Sequence record: MH031343
Strand: one strand, 5' to 3'
Length of the DNA: 39,825 bases
Source: Escherichia phage vB_EcoP_S523
Notes under the pieces: model-generated
What the model saw: only the letters and a program-made list of their open reading frames with translations
Told to the model about the DNA's origin: nothing
Database searches by the model: none
Position numbers and translations under genes: made by a program
Shown: positions 1,199-37,522 of the stretch, piece by piece
Layout: every line of letters begins with the position of its first letter
How positions within the stretch are numbered: position 1 is the stretch's first letter

Positions 1199-3850
1199 TT
1201 AGGCAAACGCAAAGTCTGACTTAAGGATTTCTTGCAGGTCCAGAGAGCCTTTAGCTGGCATCTCAGGCATCTTATCAAGCTGTGTCTCGTGCAACTGGTC
1301 AGCAAATTGCTCATAGAAGTCTGCAAGTACATCGTTCTCTTCGTAAGTGTTGACCATCGTTTCACGCACTGCTTTAAACAGGTTGCCAGCAGCAGCCGGG
1401 ATAGTGCCAAAGGAGTCATGAATCAGTGCGAAGGATTCCACACCGTAGACCTCATTGGAGCGCACTACAGTCATTCTCAGGTGGCTTCCATCCATTGAGT
1501 GGACAAAGTTAGGTGCGATGCCTGACTCCTGTTTACGAGCGTCAATCCCGCTATCTTTGTTGGTGTTCACGGTAGGCTGTAGACGAATCTGGCCTAAGAA
1601 CATCAGGTTCAAGCGGGTCTGTACTGGCTTCTTATATTCCTGCCAGACCGGGAAGCCATCAGGAGTAACCCAATGTACCGCACAGCGCTTACGGAGGACT
1701 TCTTTAGTCTTTTTGTCCTTGACTTCAGCAGCCAGAAGTTTAGCAGCAGACTTCAACCAGTTCATCGCTTCAACCGCTGCGACAACTGTGACCGTTACCG
1801 ATTCCCAAATCAGTTTAGCCATGTAGCCAGCCGCTTGGTTCGGTTGAGTGAACATCAAGCCCTTGCCATCGTCGATAGCTGGCTGAATGGTGTCCTCAAG
1901 AACTTGGTCACGGAATCCGTACTCTTTGGAACCATAAGCCAACGTCATGACCGAACGCTTAGTGACCTTGCGAGTCACACCATAGGCCAGCCACTGACCA
2001 GCTAACTCTTTCGTTCCCAGCTTGAGCTTCTCAGTGATTTCACCAGTGTCCTTGTTTGTCACGGTTTCCACTTCGTTATCAGTGCCGTTGACTACCGCTT
2101 CGCGGAGCATCTCGTTCACACGTTCCGCAACGATTCGGTAGATGTCCTGTACTTCCTTGCTCGGCAGCAGGTTAACCGCACGACCACCAACCTCATCACG
2201 GAGCATCGCGGAGAAGTGCTGAATACCGGAGCAGCTACCATCGAACGCCAGCGGAAGAGAGCAGTTGTAGTTCATCCCGTGGTGTTGCACACCTGCATAC
2301 TCAAAGCAGAATGCGAGGAAGCAGAACGGAGAGTCTTGCTCGGCCCACCAAGTGTTAGCAATCGGGTCAGCCGCAACGCTCATGATGTTCTCATGGTTGT
2401 CATCAATGAACTTGATGCGTTCTGCAAAGTCCACCTTGTCCACGCCAGCAGTGTTAGCACCGTGAATCTTCAGCCAGTAATACCCATCGACACCGATTGG
2501 TTTACCTTTAGCGAGCGTTAACAGACCCTTGGTCATGTCGTTGCCCTGCGGGTTGAACATCGGGACCGCGTACACACGACCGCGCCAGTCCATATTCATC
2601 GGGAACCAGATAGCTTTAAACTGTGCGAACTTATTGGCCTGACCTAACATGAACTCCATGCTCATGCGGCGTGACACTCGTGCCTTCTCTTTGCGGTAGA
2701 TTGCGGAGGCCGCTTTCTTCCATGCTTTGAGTGATGCCTCGTTGGTGTCGATGTCATCAGGTTTGACCGGGAGTTCTCCACGTTCCAGAGCGGGTACATC
2801 TTCAACCGGGCAATGCTTCCAGTTCACAATCTCGTTGACCACTGCCAGAACCTTCTTGTTAATCTTCCAAGGAGTATTCTGTGCGATGTTCACCGCCTTG
2901 TAGACTTCAGGCATATACACATCGTTGTAACGCTCAAGTCCCTTCTTGCTACCAGTGCGAACCAGAGAGAGAGGCTTGCGACCCGCAGCCCAATAGCCAC
3001 CACCGACCGGAGAAGTCCAAGGCTTCGGAGGGACCACGCAAGGCTGATACATCGGAGCGATTGCAGCCAGAGCGCCAGCACGTTTGGATAGCAGGTCTAC
3101 ATATTGTTCTGTTAACTGGATGTACTCGCCATCCTTCTCGATGTTCCCAGCGAACGGGCGGTGTAACTCAACGAGACCAGTAGACCCGATGAGCAGTTCC
3201 AACATGCGCACACCAACGTGAATTGATTCTTCAGGTGTCCATGTAGTCCACTTGGTTTGCAGTTGACCAGCATCAAGCATCTTGCCCTCTACGGCTTGCA
3301 TGAATGCTTTCTTGTAGACGATACCAACGCGCTTGTTCAGTGCCTCCTGTACGTGATTCTTAAAGTGCTTCGCTTCTTCGTCACGGATGCGACCAAAACG
3401 CAGTTCATCCTCAATACTGCGACCAATCTTAGTGGCGACCGATTGCAGGTTGGTGAACTCTTCTTTCGTCAAGCAAGCGAGTGTGACCTTAAGTGTGATG
3501 AATGCAGCAGCTTCAGGTGCAACCTTCTGTACCAGATTGTAGGCTACTGGACGCTTACCACGCTTCGCTTCCACTTCAGTGAACCAAGTGTTCCACGCCT
3601 CGATGAACTTTGGTGCGAGGGATGACAGGAGCGGTTTAGCTACTGCGTTATCACCGAACTCACCCGCTTTGATTTGACGTTCCATTGCCTTTAAGAAACG
3701 TTTCTCACCCTCGGTGTGCGCCTCGTGTTCCAACTCAAGCTGCGTAGCTGCAAGCTGTGCGCCGTAATGGTCAGCCAGAATGTTGTACGGCTGGATTGCA
3801 TTAGCGATGTCAGAGAAGTCATTCTTTGGTGCGTTGATTACGTTAGTCAT
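1199..3850 (-). CDS. single-subunit DNA-directed RNA polymerase (T7 gp1 family), 883 aa
   Basis: Same length as T7 RNAP; conserved motifs (DGSCSGIQHFSAMLRDEVGG, palm/fingers, C-terminal FAFA); position after kinase gene 0.7. Confidence 0.97.
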   Translation of the reverse strand: MTNVINAPKNDFSDIANAIQPYNILADHYGAQLAATQLELEHEAHTEGEKRFLKAMERQIKAGEFGDNAVAKPLLSSLAPKFIEAWNTWFTEVEAKRGKRPVAYNLVQKVAPEAAAFITLKVTLACLTKEEFTNLQSVATKIGRSIEDELRFGRIRDEEAKHFKNHVQEALNKRVGIVYKKAFMQAVEGKMLDAGQLQTKWTTWTPEESIHVGVRMLELLIGSTGLVELHRPFAGNIEKDGEYIQLTEQYVDLLSKRAGALAAIAPMYQPCVVPPKPWTSPVGGGYWAAGRKPLSLVRTGSKKGLERYNDVYMPEVYKAVNIAQNTPWKINKKVLAVVNEIVNWKHCPVEDVPALERGELPVKPDDIDTNEASLKAWKKAASAIYRKEKARVSRRMSMEFMLGQANKFAQFKAIWFPMNMDWRGRVYAVPMFNPQGNDMTKGLLTLAKGKPIGVDGYYWLKIHGANTAGVDKVDFAERIKFIDDNHENIMSVAADPIANTWWAEQDSPFCFLAFCFEYAGVQHHGMNYNCSLPLAFDGSCSGIQHFSAMLRDEVGGRAVNLLPSKEVQDIYRIVAERVNEMLREAVVNGTDNEVETVTNKDTGEITEKLKLGTKELAGQWLAYGVTRKVTKRSVMTLAYGSKEYGFRDQVLEDTIQPAIDDGKGLMFTQPNQAAGYMAKLIWESVTVTVVAAVEAMNWLKSAAKLLAAEVKDKKTKEVLRKRCAVHWVTPDGFPVWQEYKKPVQTRLNLMFLGQIRLQPTVNTNKDSGIDARKQESGIAPNFVHSMDGSHLRMTVVRSNEVYGVESFALIHDSFGTIPAAAGNLFKAVRETMVNTYEENDVLADFYEQFADQLHETQLDKMPEMPAKGSLDLQEILKSDFAFA

Positions 3851-6319: not shown

Positions 6320-6342
6320 ATTCTCAATAGTGAGTCGTATAA
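6320..6342 (-). promoter_or_regulatory. phage RNAP promoter (phiOL-like, left end), TTATACGACTCACTATTGAGAAT
   Basis: Match to T7 promoter core ACGACTCACTAT on minus strand, upstream of the host-type early promoters. Confidence 0.55.
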
Positions 6343-6479
6343 AGGCTATTGACTATAAGCCAGCTTTAAGGCACTATAAGCACTCAGTCAATTCTACTTG
6401 TCTCTCTCATTACTCAGAGACTGCTAAACAGAGTAAGATAGTGATTCTCTTAGTGACGTAGCCTACTGGTCACTGATAA

Positions 6480-7329: not shown

Positions 7330-7352
7330 CTTCCCAATAGTGAGTCGTATTA
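7330..7352 (-). promoter_or_regulatory. phage RNAP promoter (phiOR-like, right end), TAATACGACTCACTATTGGGAAG
   Basis: Strong promoter match located after terminase gene 19, directing transcription across the genome junction. Confidence 0.75.
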
Positions 7353-7439
7353 ATTTCTTCATGTATATCAGTAAGTTACTCAACGGTAACGTAGCGGTAC
7401 TAAGTGCTTACCTATGCACCTTTCCCGCATACTTATCTA

Positions 7440-9197
7440 TTACCACTCAATGAAGCAGCTAGAGTCTCCATCGTCCTCGTAGTAGATGTCTACGCCACCA
7501 GCCTCGTAGCTATGGATAGCATCACCACCAATGGTCTGTTTCTCCATGTGGTGTTCAAGGAACTCAAGGGTCATAGCTTCCTCACCTACCTTAGAGTCCA
7601 CCTGCATCCCTTCACGAAGGAACTCGATACCCAATGCGATAGCATCAAGACGGTCATCGTGTGCCACAGCGCCCTTCTCACGAGTCATACGGGTCATCTG
7701 ATAGAACGCACTGTAGCGAACATCATGTTTCCCATCAAGGTCACGAGCGGTCTGGTAGTCCTCACGGATTACTTCGTCACGGATGATAAGGCGGTGTGCA
7801 CCCATCAACGGTTCGATAGTATCGCAGATACGCATCTCCTTCATGCCACGAGCGCGAATCTCTTCTAAGGCACACTTGTGGTGCTTCAGGAGAACCGGAG
7901 AGAATACCTTACCAAACATACCATCACCGAAGTTACTCTCGTGTACGACCGTCTGTACCTTCCACTGCTTGGCCTTCTTAGCGAGCTTCTCTAGGGTAGG
8001 GTCATCGTAGCCACCACGGAACCCACCGACTTCCATCAAGTAGATGTAGCCGTTCAGGGTGTAGAGGACCGCGTAACCCGTTTCATCCTTACCACGACCA
8101 GAGGGGTCAATGACGAGAATCTTTTGCTGGTACTCAGCGGTCTTAGAGGAACACACATGGAAGCTGTGAATGTCGTCACCCTTCAGACCCACGTTAGGAA
8201 GTTCCTCATTGCGGTTCTGACGGTTCGGCAACCACTGGTAGGACAATGGGGCACGTTCAGTGTCCACTGCGCACACGATAGCGTCACGGAGCCTCAGAGG
8301 GTACTTCTCGGCATCACTCAGGTTAGGGTTGAGCATGAACTGTAACGTGTAACCAGCTTTACCATATTCGAGTTCACGTTCACGGAGGTCATCCATATCG
8401 AATCGAACAGGGTCAGTAGGTTGTCCACGAAGTAACTCATAGCCATCATCATACTCGGCCTTAAGCATAGGAGCCAATCGGTCGCCATAGTAGAGAGCCT
8501 CAGCATCATTACGTGGATACTGTGCTGGCCAGATTACTGTGCTATACCCTTTGTTATCCTCAAGTTCCTTATAGAGAGTCATCTCGGTTTGAGGTGTCCC
8601 AAGGTAGATAACACGAGAGGTAGGCAACGGCTTAAGCAACGCAGCAAACTCAGTTACCAACGTCCAGAGCTTCTCACGGGCAGAACTCGTAGAACTGTTG
8701 CCGGGAACCTCAACGTCATCCGCAATGATAATATCAGCACGGCTACCAGTCAACTGACCAGTAATACCTACAGACTTCACAGAAGGTGAGTGGTCGGGTT
8801 TCGCCAAGCCTACGTCAAAGCTAATCACAGAGTCACGCTGTCCCGGTCGAGGTTTCAACTCAGCGAGGAATGGCAGCAGGTCAATGATGTTCTTAATGAA
8901 GATGGAGTTAGCATCCGCACGTTCCTTAGAGGCAGACACGATGAGCACCTTAAGTTGAGGGTCACGCCATAGCACCCACACAACGAACGCACAGGTGATA
9001 AAGGACTTGCCGATACCACGGAACGCCTGAAGGATAAACTTCTTGTGGTCGCCATTAGCGAGTGTACGTGCCATATCAATCTGACACTTGGTTGGTTTAG
9101 GTAAGTTCAGAGCCTTCCATAAGACGAACAGGAAGGCCACGAAGTCACCCTTAAGTTGCGCCACGATGAGCGCATTCTTGTTTGCTTGAGTAGACAT
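7440..9197 (-). CDS. terminase large subunit (gp19), 585 aa
   Basis: Near-colinear with T7 gp19 ([54 protein letters not shown]). Confidence 0.95.
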
Positions 9198-9212
9198 TGT
9201 GGCCTCCTATTG

Positions 9213-9770
9213 TTACTCGGCAGATTTCTCTAAGGCAGCAATGCGCTTCTCAAGAGCCTTGATAGTGTCGGTCTTAGACACAGCCCCGTCGATGTTACTA
9301 GGTTGGAACATAACGGAAGCGCTCTTCCCTTCGCTGTCCACGAACTGTGTACCAAATGCACTATCAGACGCAGAAAGCGTTGCATTGACTAATGAAGACA
9401 CACCACCTTCCGGTTCAGGGTCAGCACCAGTCCACTCTTTGTATACGTCGATTCGAACCATACCGAGCCGCTCAGTGCTTTGCTCATTCAGGAACACCGT
9501 CATGAACCCGCTACCCGGTTTAGACTCGACGGAGCCGCCCCAAGTGGACATAAGGGTCTCGAACGTAGCATGTTGCTCAGTGGTGCCATCACTCAGTTGG
9601 ATAACGTATTCAACCTTAGAGTAGCCATCAACCTTAACCATCTCCGAAGCTGGGATGTCGATACGCCCAACACGAATGCCAATATTGTTGCGGTCATACA
9701 CATCACGACTGTCTGGTGAGCGACCATTGATGGTCCAGAGTGTGCGGGTTCTTGAGTTTGTAGTAGCCAT
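9213..9770 (-). CDS. hypothetical protein, 185 aa, between the spanin genes and the terminase large subunit gene
   Basis: ORF with ATG at 9768-9770 and AAGGAG RBS, packed tightly between gene 18.5 and gene 19; no TM segment; C-terminal heptad-like KALEKRIAALEK; no T7 counterpart at this position. Confidence 0.6.
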   Translation of the reverse strand: MATTNSRTRTLWTINGRSPDSRDVYDRNNIGIRVGRIDIPASEMVKVDGYSKVEYVIQLSDGTTEQHATFETLMSTWGGSVESKPGSGFMTVFLNEQSTERLGMVRIDVYKEWTGADPEPEGGVSSLVNATLSASDSAFGTQFVDSEGKSASVMFQPSNIDGAVSKTDTIKALEKRIAALEKSAE

Positions 9771-9771
9771 A

Positions 9772-10215
9772 TTATTTCTCCTTCTTAGATTGCATTTCAG
9801 TTATTGTATTTTGGAGCGCTTTAATCCACGCATCCCCTCTTTGAGTTACTCCGATAAGACGCTTACTAAACTCTTCGTCAAGTTCGGCTCGACCATCAAC
9901 GAGGCATCCACCGTTAGCTTGGAGTTCTCGTGAGGTGGCTGATAGTTTGACACGCAGCCGCTTACCATCGTTACGCAAATCATTAATGACCCTATCAGTG
10001 CTGCCTTCCAGCGCCGCAAGGTCTTCTTGGTATTGTCGTGAGACTTCATTGAGAGCAGCCTGTTTATCCTCAGTCGCCTTAACTTTCTTAACGTACTCAT
10101 TGTGCACCTCCTGTTCCCATTTAGTGTTAGCCTTGTCATAGCCGTGGTTGTACGCAAGGGTAATTCCCAAGGCAAACGCAGCGATTATGGCGTAGCTCTT
10201 TAAATTCTTGAGCAT
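9772..10215 (-). CDS. inner-membrane spanin (gp18.5, Rz-like), 147 aa
   Basis: N-terminal TM segment and conserved KWEQEVHNEYVKKV ... YQEDLAALEGSTDR as in T7 gp18.5. Confidence 0.85.
   Translation of the reverse strand: MLKNLKSYAIIAAFALGITLAYNHGYDKANTKWEQEVHNEYVKKVKATEDKQAALNEVSRQYQEDLAALEGSTDRVINDLRNDGKRLRVKLSATSRELQANGGCLVDGRAELDEEFSKRLIGVTQRGDAWIKALQNTITEMQSKKEK
9846..10100 (-). CDS. outer-membrane lipoprotein spanin (gp18.7, Rz1-like) embedded in gene 18.5 in another frame, 84 aa
   Basis: ATG at 10098-10100 gives MSTLRKLRRLR...; lipobox-like LIGSLMICVTMVSGC; proline-rich C-terminus ending SLMVEPNLT like T7 gp18.7. Confidence 0.7.
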   Translation of the reverse strand: MSTLRKLRRLRINRLLSMKSHDNTKKTLRRWKAALIGSLMICVTMVSGCVSNYQPPHENSKLTVDASLMVEPNLTKSLVSVLSE

Positions 10216-10829: not shown

Positions 10830-12854
10830 TTATTGGGTTTGAACTAAGATTCTCGTAGGTACAGAACTACGGTCAGCATCATTACGGAAAGTTCTCCCGT
10901 TGTTGGAGATTGTGAACTGTAACCACCCGCCCATAGAAGAGATGTAGTATGCACCGTTATCACCAATCTGAACAGGGTTCCAGCGTCCTCGAGTTTGAAT
11001 CCAGATGGTTCTCCATCGGACATCCTGTGAGAGACCTACGGATACCCCACCACCAGCGGAACCTTTCCACACCTCAGCCCAGCCAGCATTCTTACGAATG
11101 TATCGACCGTCAGCGGCACCTTGGGTTAAACGACCATTAACTAGGTTGTTCACCTCTCTTTTGTTATAGGCATGTTCACCAAGGCGTTTGTTGACCCAAC
11201 CGTCGATGTAAGAATCATACTTCTTGATGTATAAGTTACCATCTGCCGCAATCTGCCACCCCTTACTACTTGCCAATGCGCCTTGAATAGTCATTGTAAG
11301 GGCATGTTCATTACCGCCATCCCCCTTGAGTTGGATGATACCATCGTGGAAGTTGTTGCTACCCTTGGATACCATACCGATGGAGAATGCCGCCGGATAA
11401 CCATTAGAGCGTCTACCATATTGTTTAATCATAGGGTAATACACGTTGCCATCCTGATTTCCGGGGAGGCTTTGCGAGTAGGGGGCATTGTTATTCAACT
11501 GGTTTGCGAACCCTCCTGACCCAAAAGTTGACTCAGTGTAGAATCGCTCATCAGCCCTGATATACTTAGATACTCGAAGATAACCATCCATAGATACGTT
11601 CTGGTAGAACCGTGAATCATGGTGAGAGTGGAATCCACCGTAGAAATCGTGGCGTCCGTTCCCATTGGAGCGACCATCAGGCCACTTAGATGGGTCCGTG
11701 TTTGTAAACACATAGTAGTCCATGCGTTTTGGTCCGGCCTGAATCCACTGTTCCCAAACAGTCTCCTTACTGCCCTCCCCACGCCATTGGGTCCACACCA
11801 AGTCAACTGGCTGTGTACCAGCACCTTTTGCATCATTTCGCAACGTAAAGTCCTTACCAGATACTTTGCGCTTGAAGTAAACATCAGGAGCCTCAACCCT
11901 GTCGATAGCCTCAGCTAGTGAGTTCATATTACCCAACTTGTCAGCCTCAGCCTTAGCACGGTCAGCCTCACCTTTGGAGCGGTTTGCCTCAGTGTTGGCT
12001 CGGTCAGCATGTCCCTTAGCGGTCTCAACATGTGCAGCAGCTTTGGCAACCTCAGCAGCAGCTTTAGTCACTTCTCCGGCAGCACGATTGGCCTCATCAC
12101 GGGCACGATTGGCCTCAGAGTTGGAACGGTCAGCTTGCTTCTTGGCCTCAGCGACACTTGCGGTCATACTATCAGCATAACCTTTAGCTCGGTTAGCCTC
12201 AGAGTTGGAACGGTCAGCTTGCTTCTTGGACTCAACTGCTTGTTGCGTAGAGACACCTGCCTGTTGCGTTGAGCGGTCAGCTTCACGTTGAGCACGGTTG
12301 GCCTCATCACGAGAACGGTTTGCTTCCTTATTGGCCCTGTCAGCGTGTTCGTTAGCTTTTGTTACGGCATTCCATGCAGAGGATTCACGCTCTTTAACCT
12401 GCTTTAAAGGAACGGCATCATAGTCACTTGTGGCATACGCCAAGTTAACAATCTTACGACCACGAGCATCTAAGTGACCGTCATTGTTGACACCAATGGT
12501 ATCCGCAGTGAGGTCTCGTGCTTCTTCAGCAACATGCAGTGTTTGAATCTGCGAGATGTTCAGGTCATATGCACGGAGGATTGAGCCATCAGCAAGGTCA
12601 ACCAGACGATCAGTAGCCGAAGTGAATCGACGAATCTCAATCATCTGGTAGCCATCAGCGGCAGTCCACGCACGGGTAGTAGTAATTTGAGTCTTACTGG
12701 TAAAACGATAGTCCTGATTGAGAACCAGTTCTTTACGGTCTTTACCAATAAGTGTCACTTGGATGAACTTACGTGCCAGATAATCAAAGGTAATCGTGAA
12801 ATTCACGGCACCATTCAGCGGGTAAGTCATCACAGTACGAATCTTGTTAGCCAT
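10830..12854 (-). CDS. tail fiber protein (gp17), 674 aa, with extended shaft and distal domain
   Basis: N-terminal about 150 aa and C-terminal about 90 aa match T7 gp17 (FEYLARKF..VTLIG, GSAGGGVSV..SQD); central ADRxNxEANR repeats; about 120 aa longer than T7 gp17 (553 aa). Confidence 0.9.
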   Translation of the reverse strand: MANKIRTVMTYPLNGAVNFTITFDYLARKFIQVTLIGKDRKELVLNQDYRFTSKTQITTTRAWTAADGYQMIEIRRFTSATDRLVDLADGSILRAYDLNISQIQTLHVAEEARDLTADTIGVNNDGHLDARGRKIVNLAYATSDYDAVPLKQVKERESSAWNAVTKANEHADRANKEANRSRDEANRAQREADRSTQQAGVSTQQAVESKKQADRSNSEANRAKGYADSMTASVAEAKKQADRSNSEANRARDEANRAAGEVTKAAAEVAKAAAHVETAKGHADRANTEANRSKGEADRAKAEADKLGNMNSLAEAIDRVEAPDVYFKRKVSGKDFTLRNDAKGAGTQPVDLVWTQWRGEGSKETVWEQWIQAGPKRMDYYVFTNTDPSKWPDGRSNGNGRHDFYGGFHSHHDSRFYQNVSMDGYLRVSKYIRADERFYTESTFGSGGFANQLNNNAPYSQSLPGNQDGNVYYPMIKQYGRRSNGYPAAFSIGMVSKGSNNFHDGIIQLKGDGGNEHALTMTIQGALASSKGWQIAADGNLYIKKYDSYIDGWVNKRLGEHAYNKREVNNLVNGRLTQGAADGRYIRKNAGWAEVWKGSAGGGVSVGLSQDVRWRTIWIQTRGRWNPVQIGDNGAYYISSMGGWLQFTISNNGRTFRNDADRSSVPTRILVQTQ
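12112..12229 (-). repeat. in-frame direct repeat inside tail fiber shaft region (34-nt identical copies at 12112..12145 and 12196..12229, 84 nt apart)
   Basis: gcctcagagttggaacggtcagcttgcttcttgg occurs twice; encodes repeated KKQADRSNSEANRA. Confidence 0.7.
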
Positions 12855-12901: not shown

Positions 12902-12924
12902 CTTCCCATTAGTGAGTCGTATTG
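12902..12924 (-). promoter_or_regulatory. phage RNAP promoter upstream of tail fiber gene (phi17-like), CAATACGACTCACTAATGGGAAG
   Basis: Promoter core match about 50 nt upstream of gene 17 ATG. Confidence 0.75.
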
Positions 12925-12925
12925 A

Positions 12926-15900
12926 TTACTTCTTGTCAGCCTTAAGGTGAACACCATTAGCCTCATAGAACTTAATGAGCATCTGTTGAGTGATAGGGTC
13001 ATTAGGAACCATCTCACGATGAGCGTTCATCAAGCCAGTCATCATCTCACGCTCGGTCACTTTGTTAGGAGCCGTTAGGACACCATAAGCATTTCGACCA
13101 GCAGCAAGGGTTGCCCCAGCGAAACCAAGAGCGGGAATCTGTTCACCAATAGCGCCCATGATGGATTCTCCCATATCACGAGAGGTCACTGCTTTATTCC
13201 GGTCACGCTTGTCTTCTCCTTTCGGTAGAATCGTAGAGCGCACCATGAGACCTTGGTCGTAACCAGCAGCACCCATAGCGAAGTTGGCGATACTCAACGG
13301 GGAACCTAAGTGTGAACTACGGGAGGCCGCAGCGTAGGCAATCATCTTCGGGTCGAGGGCTTTCTTCAAGTAATCCTTCTGTTGCTCTTTAGGAAGACCA
13401 GCAGCTTTCAAGTGAGCCTGTGCCACATAGTAGGAGCCAGCAATGCCACCAGAGATAGCATAGGTCAGCGCCATGTCCATAGCACGGTGGTTCTTAAAGG
13501 CTTCGTTGCCAGAGCGGATAAACTTAGAGTTCATCGACTTGATGACAAACGACTTAAACTGAAGGACTAACTTAGGGATAGCACCATACGCATGGGAATC
13601 CTGTAGGGAAACCTTATGAGGTCGGAGCATCGTTTCATCAGCAACCTTATCAGCTAAACGCCATAAGTCCATAGCACGAGGGTCATTCGCCAGCTTGCGC
13701 TTATCCTTGAAGGTGAACTTACCGTCTTCACCACGAGTCACGTTCTCACGAATGAGGTTCTGAATGCCTTCCCACTGTTCCTTAGAGATACTCGCAGACT
13801 TCAGCATGTCACCTTTAATCCACTTGTTGGCACCTTTGCCAGTGATAGCATGAGTGACCACATCTCCCATCACACCCTGTCGAGCCATATCGAGAATGTA
13901 GTTTGACGTACCATTCAGGAACTTGGTGAGCGGGGAGCGAGCAGCTAACTCTTGAGTCGTGTGCTTGATAGTCCCTACAGCCTTAGCAGCCATATCTGGA
14001 GTATCGGTTGACTCGCGTAGTCGCTGAACGATGTCTTGACGAGTCGGACGAATCAGGTCGTCGAACTCTTTACCAAACACCATTGAGTGGAGTTCCTTGA
14101 GTTCCTTACCAGAGACTGGCTTGTTGCGGAACGCTAAGTCACGCAGAGCAGGAATACCATGCAGCATCGCACGAGTGTTACCCTTTGCTAAGAGACCAGA
14201 GATTTCAGTTAGGTTCTGCAAGCCCATGTATGCGTTCTTCGTAAAGAATGACATATCGGACAGAGCGCGAACCATAGTGTCACCTACGGTATCCTGATTG
14301 CGACGAGCGCGACCAGTGAGAATCTTAACGGTATCTTTCAGTGCCTCTACTTCACCTTTCATCGTACCCTTCCCTTCTGACTTCTTATCGAGAGCCATAA
14401 TGGAATCTTTCAGTTCAGCAGTTGTCTTCCCTGTTCCACCCATGATTGCAATGTCACCATCAACACGTCGGTCATAGGCTGGCATCACACGCTTCATATC
14501 GAAGTCACGGAGGTCATTCACAGAGAACGGCTGTCCATTCGGTAAGGTAACTGGCATGTCAGAGTCGAATAGGTTACGGGCTTCAAGGAACGAGTTGTTC
14601 TCAATCCCCACGAGACCCTCAATGTTATCGTCGATGACACTTGAAGAGTTGAACTCATCAGTCTTCGCAATACCATAAGCCTTATCGCTGGCATGTTTCA
14701 TCACCATCTCTTCGGTAACAGCCTTTGGGTCGATACCCAAGGTCTCCGCTAAGTGCTCATCCACACGAGCCTTAACTTCAGGACGTGAACGGTAAGAGGT
14801 CATCCAGCTTGCAGCGATAGCTTCCTGTAAACCGTCAGTACCGCCAAGAGCCTGTGAGTACAACTGCTTGGCTTCCCGCGAGTACACATGAGGAACGTAA
14901 GTCCCTTTGTGACGACTATTGGGGAAGATAGAAGTTGCCTTGTTACCAAACATAGACGGGTTCTCCATCATCTCACGCTTGAGGTCGAAATGTTCCTTCA
15001 TGATGTCCATTACCTTACGCTCAGCCTTCGTTAAGTTGGCCTGAAGTTCTGGACGCTCAATAGCGATTGCAGCACGACGATAGATTTCCTGACGAGCACC
15101 TTGAGCACCCTGCTTGAACATACCCACAGACCACTCAGGGTCAGCCATAGCTTCCTTCATTGCACTATAGAGGTCGTTGTAGGTTCGTTGGTTCGTACTG
15201 TGCAGACGCTCTTTAATGTCAGAGGCAGTAGCACCGAACTTACCGTGAGTACCTGACTCCATACCTGTAGGTGAGCGCACTAAGTCCTTAGCGAGACCAC
15301 GGATTTCAGCGTGTTCAGAACGTAAAGTCCTCAAGCCGATTTCACTCAGTCCACGCATAGGCAAGCCCCACGCAGCACGTTCAGGGTCTACTTCTGCGAA
15401 CTCTTTGGCTGTCATTGGGTTAGCCAAGTTTGTATCACTGATAATGGAACCATCACGCAACACTACGGCACCCGGTTCAGTTTCAAGAGGTGAATACTCA
15501 ACGCCATTGTGATTCGAGAACACTCGGTCTTCACTAGGAGGCATACGGCTTGCGTCGTGCCCACCTGTGTTACGTGCAGTCTCACGAGCCTCAAAGCGCA
15601 TCTGTGCAGCAGCGAATGGGTTCTCAATCTGTTCAGCACCGGACTTACGGAGACCAGCAGCCACACCATCAGCGATAGCAGTAAGGCCACCAGCGAACAG
15701 CATACCAGCAAGGGCAGCTTCAGCATAGTGAGCATCACCGCCAGCAACCGATGTGCGGAGTCCTTCAGAGGCCACGTTGAGAGCGCCAGCTTGAGCACCT
15801 ACAATCAACGCCTTGTTAACCAGCTTGAACCCTTTAGCCGCAGTCCCAGCGATAGGAACGTAGGTCAACGGGTCAACACCAGCACCAATAAGGCCAGCAG

Positions 15901-20238: not shown

Positions 20239-20261
20239 CTTCCCAATAGTGAGTCGTATTG
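20239..20261 (-). promoter_or_regulatory. phage RNAP promoter (phi13-like), CAATACGACTCACTATTGGGAAG
   Basis: Promoter core match between gene 12 stop and gene 13 start. Confidence 0.75.
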
Positions 20262-20289
20262 TTCACTAATTGAGTCGGGGTGTTTTCAT

Positions 20290-24715: not shown

Positions 24716-24738
24716 TCTCCCAATAGTGAGTCGTATTA
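24716..24738 (-). promoter_or_regulatory. phage RNAP promoter upstream of capsid gene (phi10-like), TAATACGACTCACTATTGGGAGA
   Basis: Best promoter match in the window; about 165-nt leader ending AAGGAGATTCAACATG. Confidence 0.85.
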
Positions 24739-24741
24739 ATT

Positions 24742-25740: not shown

Positions 25741-25763
25741 GTTCCCATTAGTGAGTCGTATTA
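25741..25763 (-). promoter_or_regulatory. phage RNAP promoter (phi9-like), TAATACGACTCACTAATGGGAAC
   Basis: Promoter core overlapping the gene 8 stop codon, upstream of gene 9. Confidence 0.8.
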
Positions 25764-27368
25764 ATTAGGAACCATACCAGCCTGTGCAGCAGCAGCTTCC
25801 ATGTTCTCAGGACTTGCAGTAGCCAGTGCACCAGCACCAGCACCAGCAGACGCAGCAGCGTTCTCCATAGCAGTACCTTGAGCGGCCTCAGCCATCTCCT
25901 GTTGCTTCTCTTCAGGTGTCTTAAGGATACCAGAAGTGTCGATGCCGATAGCATTCGCAATGCGCAACTTAATGGTCGCAATGTTGATGTCCGGGTCATT
26001 CTGCATAGGAGCAAGAGCAGACCAAGCAGCAATACAACGTTCCAGCTTATCGAGGTCTTGACCACGACCCAATGCTTCCATCCCGGTACTGATAGTAGGC
26101 TCAACGGCCTCTTTCGGTAACTCAGGAATTTGATTGGTTGCTTGAAGTTGCTTCAGCAGTACACGAACCATTGGCAACTGAAGTTCCTGTGAGAGAATCG
26201 AATAGACACCACCAAGGGTATCTTCGAGTTCAGATGCAACATAACGAATCTCTTCGGCAGTCACACGCTCACCAGTACGCTGCACAGCGGAGTTCAACAT
26301 AAAGGCATAGGACAGTCGGCCTTCAATCTGTTCACTCACAGCACGAGCCACGGAGAAGTCAGCAGCCTTTTCGAGTTGTAGGAACGAGATGTCTTCTGGA
26401 CGACCAGACACGAAGTCACCAGTCTGCGCTTTGGTCAAGCGTCGAACCTGTGTGATACCAGCCGGGTTTACCAAGCCGATAACCTTTGCACTAATCATGG
26501 ACATCTTGACGATAGCTTCCTGAAGGTTCTCAAGGGAACGTAAGTCACCCAAGTATTCCTCACAGTATGAACGACCGTATGATTCCCCATCAATGCGTAC
26601 CATGCGAACCGGGATATAAGGACAAGCGTCCACCGGATAAGAAGCATCTGTACCATCAACTTCGACTCCATCAATCTCTTCGTACTTCAGGTATTCGCCT
26701 GATTCCTCATCGAGATAAATGTGAGTATACACGTCAATCATTTCATCGCCTTTATGTTCCGTACCGGAGTCCATAGAGTTCCTTACGTCTTCTGGTAGTG
26801 CTGCATAGGCAGTCTTATCCAAGGTCACAATCTGTAGTACCGTGCCGAATGCGTCTCGTTGGACAACATAAGAAGACAGTCGGTATAACTTCATGGGATT
26901 GTAAGTACCTTCAGGTTCCGGGATGTAGAGCAGAGCGTTACCCGCTACGACCAACTGCTTCAGGGTCTCAAAGAGTGTCACACGGTATGAGTTTGACTCG
27001 ATGTAGTTCATCAAGATACGCTCGACCATTGAGAGACCCTCTTCGACCTTCGCCAGTTCAGCAGGTTGTGCAACCAATTGTTTCGCTTCGAACTCAGAGA
27101 TGGTCAGCTTCATCCAAGTCTGCATAGGGAACAGAGCGAGCATGAGCTTAGAGGCCAAGTTGTTCAGACCACGAGCGCCTACTGCTTGCCACGGAGTCGT
27201 GTAGTCAGTAGAGGCGTTATCGGAGTCCTTCGGGAACAACGAGGGGATGGTGTACTTCGCACAGTTTTCCGCACGGGTCTCATAGGAGTTCCGGTCGTTC
27301 TTCAATGCGTCATACACCGCCTTGGCACCATTCTCAGCGAAGCCTTCACGTTTCTGTGAGCTTGCCAT
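25761..27368 (-). CDS. head-to-tail connector / portal protein (gp8), 535 aa
   Basis: Colinear with T7 gp8 (536 aa). Confidence 0.95.
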   Translation of the reverse strand: MASSQKREGFAENGAKAVYDALKNDRNSYETRAENCAKYTIPSLFPKDSDNASTDYTTPWQAVGARGLNNLASKLMLALFPMQTWMKLTISEFEAKQLVAQPAELAKVEEGLSMVERILMNYIESNSYRVTLFETLKQLVVAGNALLYIPEPEGTYNPMKLYRLSSYVVQRDAFGTVLQIVTLDKTAYAALPEDVRNSMDSGTEHKGDEMIDVYTHIYLDEESGEYLKYEEIDGVEVDGTDASYPVDACPYIPVRMVRIDGESYGRSYCEEYLGDLRSLENLQEAIVKMSMISAKVIGLVNPAGITQVRRLTKAQTGDFVSGRPEDISFLQLEKAADFSVARAVSEQIEGRLSYAFMLNSAVQRTGERVTAEEIRYVASELEDTLGGVYSILSQELQLPMVRVLLKQLQATNQIPELPKEAVEPTISTGMEALGRGQDLDKLERCIAAWSALAPMQNDPDINIATIKLRIANAIGIDTSGILKTPEEKQQEMAEAAQGTAMENAAASAGAGAGALATASPENMEAAAAQAGMVPN

Positions 27369-28335: not shown

Positions 28336-28358
28336 CCTCTCAATAGTGAGTCGTATTG
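28336..28358 (-). promoter_or_regulatory. phage RNAP promoter (phi6.5-like), CAATACGACTCACTATTGAGAGG
   Basis: Promoter core between gene 6.3-like ORF and gene 6.5. Confidence 0.75.
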
Positions 28359-28386
28359 ATTTCACTGTCGAGAAGAATGCCTAGAG

Positions 28387-33603: not shown

Positions 33604-33626
33604 TGTCCCATTAGTGAGTTGTATTG
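33604..33626 (-). promoter_or_regulatory. variant phage RNAP promoter (phi4.3-like), CAATACAACTCACTAATGGGACA
   Basis: Promoter core inside the 3' end of gene 4, upstream of the gene 4.3-like ORF. Confidence 0.55.
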
Positions 33627-33691
33627 ATTGCTTTCTGTAGAGCGCCTGTTCGCGCTCGTTCAGTTCTTCCCACTGGTCTACCCAATGGCTA

Positions 33692-37310: not shown

Positions 37311-37333
37311 TCTCCCATTAGTGAGTCCTATTA
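37311..37333 (-). promoter_or_regulatory. phage RNAP promoter (phi2.5-like), TAATAGGACTCACTAATGGGAGA
   Basis: Promoter core overlapping the gene 2 stop, upstream of gene 2.5. Confidence 0.7.
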
Positions 37334-37522
37334 AACCTTACGGTCTGGACGGATGCGTGTTACAGCGAAGCCAGCAGGGACGTATTGCCACTCAGCTAAC
37401 TCATTGGCCTCTTCAAGAGACGTAGCGAACACGGGTACTTCGAACGATTGGCCTTGGCCTTCTACCGTAGCGAAGAACTTCTTGTCACCGTTTACCAGTG
37501 ACCCTTTATTCAGAGTGCTCAT
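37331..37522 (-). CDS. gp2-like inhibitor of host RNA polymerase, 63 aa
   Basis: Size (T7 gp2 64 aa) and conserved [20 protein letters not shown] motif. Confidence 0.8.

Follow-up and report, generated by a model that had tools for sequence, protein, structure and literature searches.

Canonical relatives of phage T7 place the spanin genes 18.5/18.7 directly before gene 19, which encodes the large terminase subunit (TerL), and the question raised by Escherichia phage vB_EcoP_S523 is what an additional 185-aa open reading frame (ORF) between them encodes. The window analysed here, the whole 39,825-nt stretch of record MH031343, is a complete, circularly permuted and reverse-oriented Berlinvirus-type genome (a BA14/Berlin-type T7 relative), with the coding-strand order 17 (10830-12854), 17.5, 18, 18.5 with the embedded 18.7, the ORF and 19 (Table 1). 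The ORF occupies positions 9213-9770 on the minus strand; the preliminary description had placed it correctly and left the strand unstated. It starts with an ATG at 9770-9768, preceded by ...AAGAAGGAGAAATAAT, and ends with a stop codon at 9215-9213. The ribosome-binding site and tight packing behind 18.5 that had been noticed earlier are both present, the AAGGAG standing 7 nt before the ATG and a single nucleotide separating the spanin TAA (9774-9772) from the start codon.

Table 1 Coordinates of the ORF, its parts, its neighbours and the phage promoters in the window.
Feature	Position	Strand	Basis or remark
185-aa ORF (PHROG 20446 family)	9213..9770, including stop codon 9213-9215	minus	ORF list, PHROG match, dN/dS, homologues
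ORF part: N-terminal beta domain (aa 1-121), ending in DPEPE linker (aa 117-121, nt 9408-9422)	9408..9770	minus	
ORF part: variable middle module (aa 122-160), beta hairpins, AFGTQFVDSEGKSASVMFQ	9291..9407	minus	Replaced in relatives; pLDDT 46-55 (monomer)
ORF part: C-terminal heptad/coiled-coil tail (aa 161-185), ...TDTIKALEKRIAALEKSAE	9216..9290	minus	Predicted helix 168-184
ORF ribosome-binding site AAGGAG, within 3' end of gene 18.5	9778..9783	minus	Sequence; 7-nt spacer to ATG
Gene 18.5, 147-aa Rz-like i-spanin; upstream neighbour in every family member	9772..10215	minus	Pfam Phage_lysis, PHROG 1327, synteny
Gene 18.7, o-spanin embedded in 18.5	9846-10100	minus	Lipobox VSGC
Gene 19, TerL; downstream neighbour in every family member	7440..9197	minus	Pfam Terminase-T7_RNaseH-like, E 4e-40; synteny
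Gene 19 ribosome-binding site AGGAGG, 3' end of inserted cassette	9203..9208	minus	Sequence TAACAATAGGAGGCCACAATG; kept in Carena despite internal deletion
phi17 promoter, driving the late transcript with 17, 17.5, 18, 18.5/18.7, ORF and 19	12904..12926	minus	BA14 consensus, 2 mismatches
phiOR promoter, next one downstream, past gene 19	7332-7354	minus	BA14 consensus match
Phage promoters	22-44, 1171-1193, 6322-6344, 7332-7354, 12904-12926, 20241-20263	minus	BA14-type consensus match
Phage promoters, continued	24718-24740, 25743-25765, 28338-28360, 33606-33628, 37313-37335	minus	BA14-type consensus match

Expression of the ORF can be read from the promoter map. A scan of the whole genome with the phiOR promoter of BA14 as query (consensus ATTAATACGACTCACTATTGGGA, up to 3 mismatches allowed) located 11 BA14-type phage promoters, all on the minus strand, with 0 expected by chance. 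None lies between phi17 and phiOR, sigma-70-like and terminator-like sites occur at background or chance level only, and the RNA at the 3' end of the ORF has no unusual structure (fold z -0.72). Because there is neither a promoter between phi17 and phiOR nor a terminator of its own, the ORF belongs to the last late transcript, within which its sequence context indicates translational coupling to 18.5. The earlier idea of a moron was rejected, as the ORF lacks its own promoter and terminator and sits inside the phi17-to-19 transcript.

Substitution patterns identify the ORF as a real gene, under purifying selection, and not a chance reading frame. Against the same-slot homologues of BA14, P483, 285P, BSP161 and FE44 (Nei-Gojobori), dN/dS is 0.10-0.51 for the whole ORF and 0.00-0.41 for residues 1-121; values for residues 122-185 lie above those of the N-terminal domain (0.09-1.17, from small counts). 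Homologues at 30-60% identity retain frame and position. Profile searches assign the protein to PHROG 20446 (E 5.8e-126, residues 1-185 of 185) and, through its N-terminal domain, to PHROG 27102 (E 8.1e-47, residues 4-129), both of unassigned function, and yielded no Pfam, NCBIfam or PADLOC family for the ORF or three relatives. Named members of these PHROGs include BA14 ACF15774.1, Berlin YP_919023, Yep-phi CDS00042 and P483_44. As a full-length member of 20446 in the same slot, the ORF shows no substantive difference from these proteins of the Berlinvirus 18.5-19 junction, whose database annotations are all 'hypothetical' or 'unknown product'.

Homologues are carried by 55-56 phage records, all Berlinvirus or Berlinvirus-like, and no copy was found outside Berlinvirus among phage records (tblastn with the ORF protein and two distant members as queries, each of which retrieved essentially one and the same set). 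Carriers include BA14, 285P, FE44, PhiV-1, P483, BSP161, PZJ0206, ETEP21B, CarlSpitteler and nasanit, as well as PYPS50/PYps50T, Berlin, Yep-phi, Yepe2, YpP-G, YepMm, vB_YpP_T3, pEa_SNUABM_57 and many AKS isolates of Y. pestis phages. Identity to the ORF reaches 96% in PhiV-1, 285P, FE44 and P483 and 91-96% in BA14-type members. Comparison of the 18.5-19 junction confirms that, where present, the gene always lies between spanin and TerL (for example in BA14, Altay-2017 and vB_YpP_T3). The protein is absent from T7 and T3 and has no N-domain paralogue among the ORFs of this genome or of related loci (profile search), in keeping with the initial impression that nothing in the T7 proteome resembles it. 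An exhaustive profile search of 1.84 billion representatives returned only 29 proteins, about 20 of which contain the N-terminal domain, all of these being 185-270 aa long; in the five metagenomic relatives looked up (5 of 5), the gene is flanked by those for an Rz-like spanin and a TerL of T7 type, and an IMG/VR scan retrieved known cultured phages only. A routine conserved gene with a known role would have spoken against the preliminary description, and half of this holds: the position is conserved, though within one genus only (56 records), and no role is known. It is thus a genus-restricted accessory gene, already present in databases as a hypothetical protein with no assigned function.

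Three further observations concern the family at large. One metagenomic relative (locus L013) belongs to a phage with two receptor-binding proteins, and a remote structural match was found in BFVD A0A5B9NKC0, an uncharacterised 205-aa protein of the T7-like Klebsiella phage vB_KpnP_Sibilus (Foldseek E 1.8e-4, 21% identity); both hint that the family reaches beyond Berlinvirus. The deposited starts of the Altay-2017 (L002 2935-3576), PYPS50 and Yep-phi homologues are about 20 codons too early (MRGLRRSKIQSKKCN...) and overlap the spanin gene; the family alignment indicates that the true start is the internal methionine of MAN(F/V)K/R....

How the gene came to occupy this slot is visible in relatives without it. 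The closest whole-genome matches, vB_YenP_WW1 and P151 (~90%), are both without the ORF, which instead shares 96% identity with its counterparts in PhiV-1, 285P and FE44, from which it follows that the late region is mosaic. In WW1 (3650-3710; here 9771-9800), the AAGGAG at the end of 18.5 directly serves the ATG of gene 19, and in Kvp1 and vB_ShiP-A7 gene 19 likewise follows 18.5 with nothing between, as the preliminary description had expected of canonical relatives. The WW1 arrangement indicates that the extra gene is a cassette, consisting of the ORF and a new ribosome-binding site for gene 19, placed between the old ribosome-binding site and gene 19. About 86 records match the DNA of the flanking spanin and TerL genes at 90% identity or more, which, set against the 55-56 carriers, means that roughly a third of close relatives lack the gene.

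Dispensability is also indicated by Escherichia phage Carena, which has a 75-aa ORF in this slot (1013-1240). Residues 1-42 and 153-185 are kept in frame, and the in-frame deletion of residues 43-152 (here 9315-9644) joins two copies of GCTTC(C/G)G. The abstract of the Carena announcement gives the genome as 93.4% identical to that of CarlSpitteler. CarlSpitteler has the intact gene. Carena is a natural knockout of the N-terminal domain, and since the deletion occurs in a viable phage, this domain is not needed for plaque formation. Together with the absence of the gene from about a third of close relatives, the Carena deletion establishes that the gene is dispensable.

The encoded protein (20.1 kDa, pI 4.85, no cysteine) has the features first read from its translation: acidic, apparently beta-rich, free of transmembrane segments (Kyte-Doolittle 19-residue window, maximum 0.61) and ending in the heptad stretch TDTIKALEKRIAALEKSAE. 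It has no signal peptide and, being without cysteine, no lipobox. AlphaFold2 modelling of the monomer (mean pLDDT 72.5; N-terminal domain 82-89) places seven strands and one short helix within residues 1-115, hairpins of low confidence at 123-155 and a C-terminal helix at 168-184. The heptad stretch has I at a positions and L at d positions over ~2.5 heptads, and the tail is conserved in two of the architectural types described below (a and b). A sequence-profile search of the PDB with the ORF returned designed coiled coils only, as weak and non-significant matches. We infer that this tail probably drives oligomerisation, probably into trimers.

Alignments resolve the family into a conserved N-terminal beta domain of ~120 aa, an acidic DPEPE hinge and interchangeable C-terminal modules. 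Invariant positions in alignment A1 include G16, R17, D20, S21, R22, D26, R36, D38, Y50, K52, E54, K111, E112 and D117-P118-E119; nearly invariant across the wider family are W12, R17, S21, D26, G35, G49, Y50, G62, G103, K111 and P118. Four types of C-terminus recur beyond the hinge: type a, to which this phage belongs, with a short hairpin module and the heptad; type b, with a ~100-aa module (ISARGL..AFGLGG..GYxFQLGGRxGxxWxRFxxxGxxxEW) and the heptad; type c (Berlin, Yepe2, Yep-phi), with a Trp-rich segment and the end ..LKxALGI..; and type d, with GLGLDFxFKDG.. and ..IKxxLGI. Other architectures include that of P0010, with a coiled-coil repeat segment. Within type a, the metagenomic P0004 (208 aa) has the C-terminal heptad unit in tandem (SNNIDGAVARTNTIKALEKRLDALEE / PSNIDGAVSKTNTIKALEKRIAALEK), which lengthens its coiled-coil tail.

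Several of these modules are homologous to segments of tail fibres. P0036, a side tail fibre of lambda type with the Pfam domains phage_tail_N, gp37_trimer and Phage_tail_C_2, shares 32% identity with the type b module through its residues 240-335 (99 residues aligned, E 4e-12). The type b module also matches PHROG 6578 'tail fiber' and reappears, often in multiple copies, in RTX or cadherin-type adhesins and in a fibre of 2506 aa that has a Peptidase_S74 chaperone domain. In P0010, residues 114-219 correspond to positions 140-245 of PHROG 4242, a tail fibre of T7 type (E 5.5e-9), and this segment aligns to residues 143-182 of gp17 of this phage, at the border of tail anchor and shaft. Both matches imply that in these relatives the N-terminal domain stands in the place of the gp17 anchor, with fibre parts following it. 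For the 40-residue module of this phage's own ORF, no relative outside the family was detected in Pfam, PHROG, PDB profiles or its own gp17, and no C-terminal module was found to be copied from the same phage's own proteins.

Variation of these modules is uncoupled from that of the main fibre. Three Y. pestis phages, Altay-2017, vB_YpP_T3 and Yep-phi, are 96-98% identical over the C-terminal 250 residues of gp17, and the C-termini of their ORF homologues, of three different architectures, are only 17-27% identical. Conversely, this phage, BSP161, 285P and FE44 have ORF C-termini that are 91-99% identical, and most pairs of their gp17 tips share 57-62% identity (77% for BSP161-285P). The Y. pestis trio thus shows rapid module exchange independent of the main fibre, and the lack of co-variation with the gp17 tip indicates that the variable part evolves independently of it. 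As an observation on the main fibre itself, gene 17 of this phage (minus strand) encodes a tail fibre of 674 aa, against 569-666 aa in relatives, and its shaft contains repeated KQADRSNSEANRA-type coiled-coil units that look like a repeat expansion.

The constant part of the family is harder to place. The N-terminal domain is of a type not characterised before and has no PDB sequence match, and its derivation as a diverged gp17 anchor was rejected (hhalign probability 1.2% against an alignment of gp17 N-termini). The overall pattern suggests a small beta-sandwich, possibly lectin-like, and is not diagnostic. By the precedent of phage fibres, an N-terminal domain of this kind would suggest an anchor; matches to CBM-like folds, together with the polar and aromatic residues conserved in the domain, would also allow a conserved ligand-binding head.

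Taken together, late co-expression with the fibre, lysis and packaging genes, solubility, dispensability, the succession of N-terminal domain, hinge and recombining fibre or adhesin modules, and the terminal coiled coil lead us to favour, tentatively and at somewhat less than even chances, a small oligomer that serves the virion as an accessory fibre, whisker or adhesin of the decoration type. The gene would encode a soluble, late-expressed, non-essential accessory protein built as a miniature phage fibre, and progeny virions would either carry the protein or be accompanied by it on release, as an auxiliary element acting as whisker, decoration or adhesin. We infer virion association and any role in adsorption; the N-terminal domain may be the constant part that docks or binds, and recombination with tail-fibre genes would exchange the C-terminal modules, uncoupled from the main fibre gp17. 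A virion-associated accessory protein was one of the two options raised at the outset, and the tail-fibre-derived modules of relatives favour it over the other. Apart from the Yep-phi proteomics paper (J Gen Virol 2011), a literature search found no virion proteomics of any carrier phage; the one Berlinvirus virion mass-spectrometry study found concerns vB_ShiP-A7, a phage without the gene (PMC8427288). Searches for Berlinvirus virion mass spectrometry, accessions and PHROG identifiers found no discussion of the ORF protein.

Known accessory proteins offer partial parallels. Phage L Dec, phi29 gp8.5, T5 pb10, T4 Hoc and the PhiM1 alpha-paw are likewise small, dispensable and made late, and decoration and head-fibre proteins combine a particle-binding domain with an oligomer or fibre that projects from the particle and has been proposed to promote adhesion, a layout that the ORF protein may share. 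No sequence or fold match to decoration proteins (gpD, Soc, Dec, Hoc, pb10, gp8.5, alpha-claw) was found. T4 fibritin (wac) is a non-essential, mostly coiled-coil protein of 487 aa with an N-terminal attachment part and a small C-terminal oligomerisation element. The ORF protein resembles it in this layout, with the presumed attachment part N-terminal and a coiled coil and probable oligomerisation element towards the C terminus, and in being non-essential, but is mostly a globular beta domain with a coiled coil of only ~2.5 heptads, and no homology was detected. By comparison with T7-type gp17 (PF03906 anchor, trimeric coiled-coil shaft and tip), it is 3-4 times smaller, lacks a match to Phage_T7_tail PF03906, has no tip domain and finds nothing in its own phage's gp17 by BLASTP; its relative P0010 carries a segment of the gp17 shaft. 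PhiM1 shows that dispensable decorations bearing a fibrous arm can occur in Autographiviridae, relatives of T7 (PMC11440229); those decorations are all-helical 'alpha-claw' dimers, unrelated to the predicted beta domain and C-terminal helix of the ORF.

A patchily distributed, dispensable gene whose modules turn over rapidly, as is the pattern of accessory genes, would also suit a non-structural soluble late factor, cytoplasmic or released at lysis, that masks receptors or debris against abortive adsorption or acts in counter-defence or host modification, its fibre-like modules serving only as oligomerisation or binding scaffolds. Three C-terminal architectures beside gp17 tips that are nearly identical in the Y. 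pestis phages are what a fast arms-race locus would be expected to produce, and the protein is small and without a recognisable virion anchor. We nevertheless consider such a factor unlikely. The known T7 anti-defence genes (0.3, 1.2, 4.5 and 5.9) are early or middle genes, unlike this ORF in the last late operon, and an extracellular role is suggested by modules that tail fibres and adhesins have in common. The anti-defence function proposed initially also gains nothing from PADLOC, NCBIfam or Pfam, in which no matches were found, and the accessory-gene screen of Silas et al. does not list the gene in its supplements.

Two helper functions in which the protein would serve a neighbouring gene product fare worse. 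With 185-270 aa, a conserved N terminus and a variable C terminus, the family has the dimensions of Tfa proteins, shares an operon with gene 17 and includes, in P0010, a piece of gp17 shaft, as might be expected of a Tfa-like or fibritin-like protein assisting gp17 folding or attachment, whose C-terminus would be matched to the fibre. Yet there is no match to Pfam Caudo_TAP or any other chaperone profile, genes 17.5, 18 and 18.5/18.7 separate the ORF from gene 17, where Tfa genes directly follow the fibre gene, and relatives with closely related gp17 N-termini manage without it. Changes in the variable module and in the gp17 tip are uncoupled in both directions, and this independent evolution argues against a matched chaperone of the Tfa type and for an independent interaction surface; a chaperone is therefore very unlikely and was rejected. 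The invariant slot right after 18.5/18.7, where in all relatives the start codon touches or overlaps the stop of the spanin gene, could in turn indicate a spanin or holin regulator or, as had been suggested, a lysis-timing factor, always translationally coupled to the spanin genes. Such a role is highly improbable: lacking a transmembrane segment, signal peptide and lipobox, the protein cannot reach the periplasmic spanin domains, and fibre-derived modules would be out of place in lysis control. The ORF is equally adjacent to gene 19, and adjacency to the spanins is weak evidence because every gene in these phages is tightly packed.

For the family as a whole, the accessory-fibre reading extends to a bolder proposal, which we regard as possible but doubtful: that these proteins are an unrecognised second host-interaction device of T7-like phages. 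Each would form a small trimeric whisker or decoration whose N-terminal beta-sandwich represents a new virion-docking (or glycan-binding) fold, the distal modules being swapped with tail-fibre genes independently of gp17 so as to give Berlinviruses a separately evolving layer of adhesion or host range on a particle that is otherwise of canonical T7 type. Both the modular, fibre-related build of the family and the deletion mutant found in nature offer new leads that can be tested, and Carena (internal deletion) and CarlSpitteler (intact gene) constitute a near-isogenic natural test pair.

T7-type virions are among the best understood and are generally described with a single receptor-binding protein, gp17, and no decoration. 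If the protein is on the particle, a dispensable, recombining, fibre-like extra in about two thirds of Berlinvirus records would change this picture. The carriers include the Y. pestis diagnostic or therapeutic phages Berlin, Yep-phi, Yepe2 and YpP-G and several candidates for E. coli, Salmonella and Erwinia therapy. On the particle, the protein would provide a second, independently evolving surface element, of consequence for host range, for adsorption in complex environments and for phage engineering, where it could act as a natural display scaffold. Should the protein be absent from the particle, the gene would still represent a compact late accessory gene with arms-race-like turnover of its modules.
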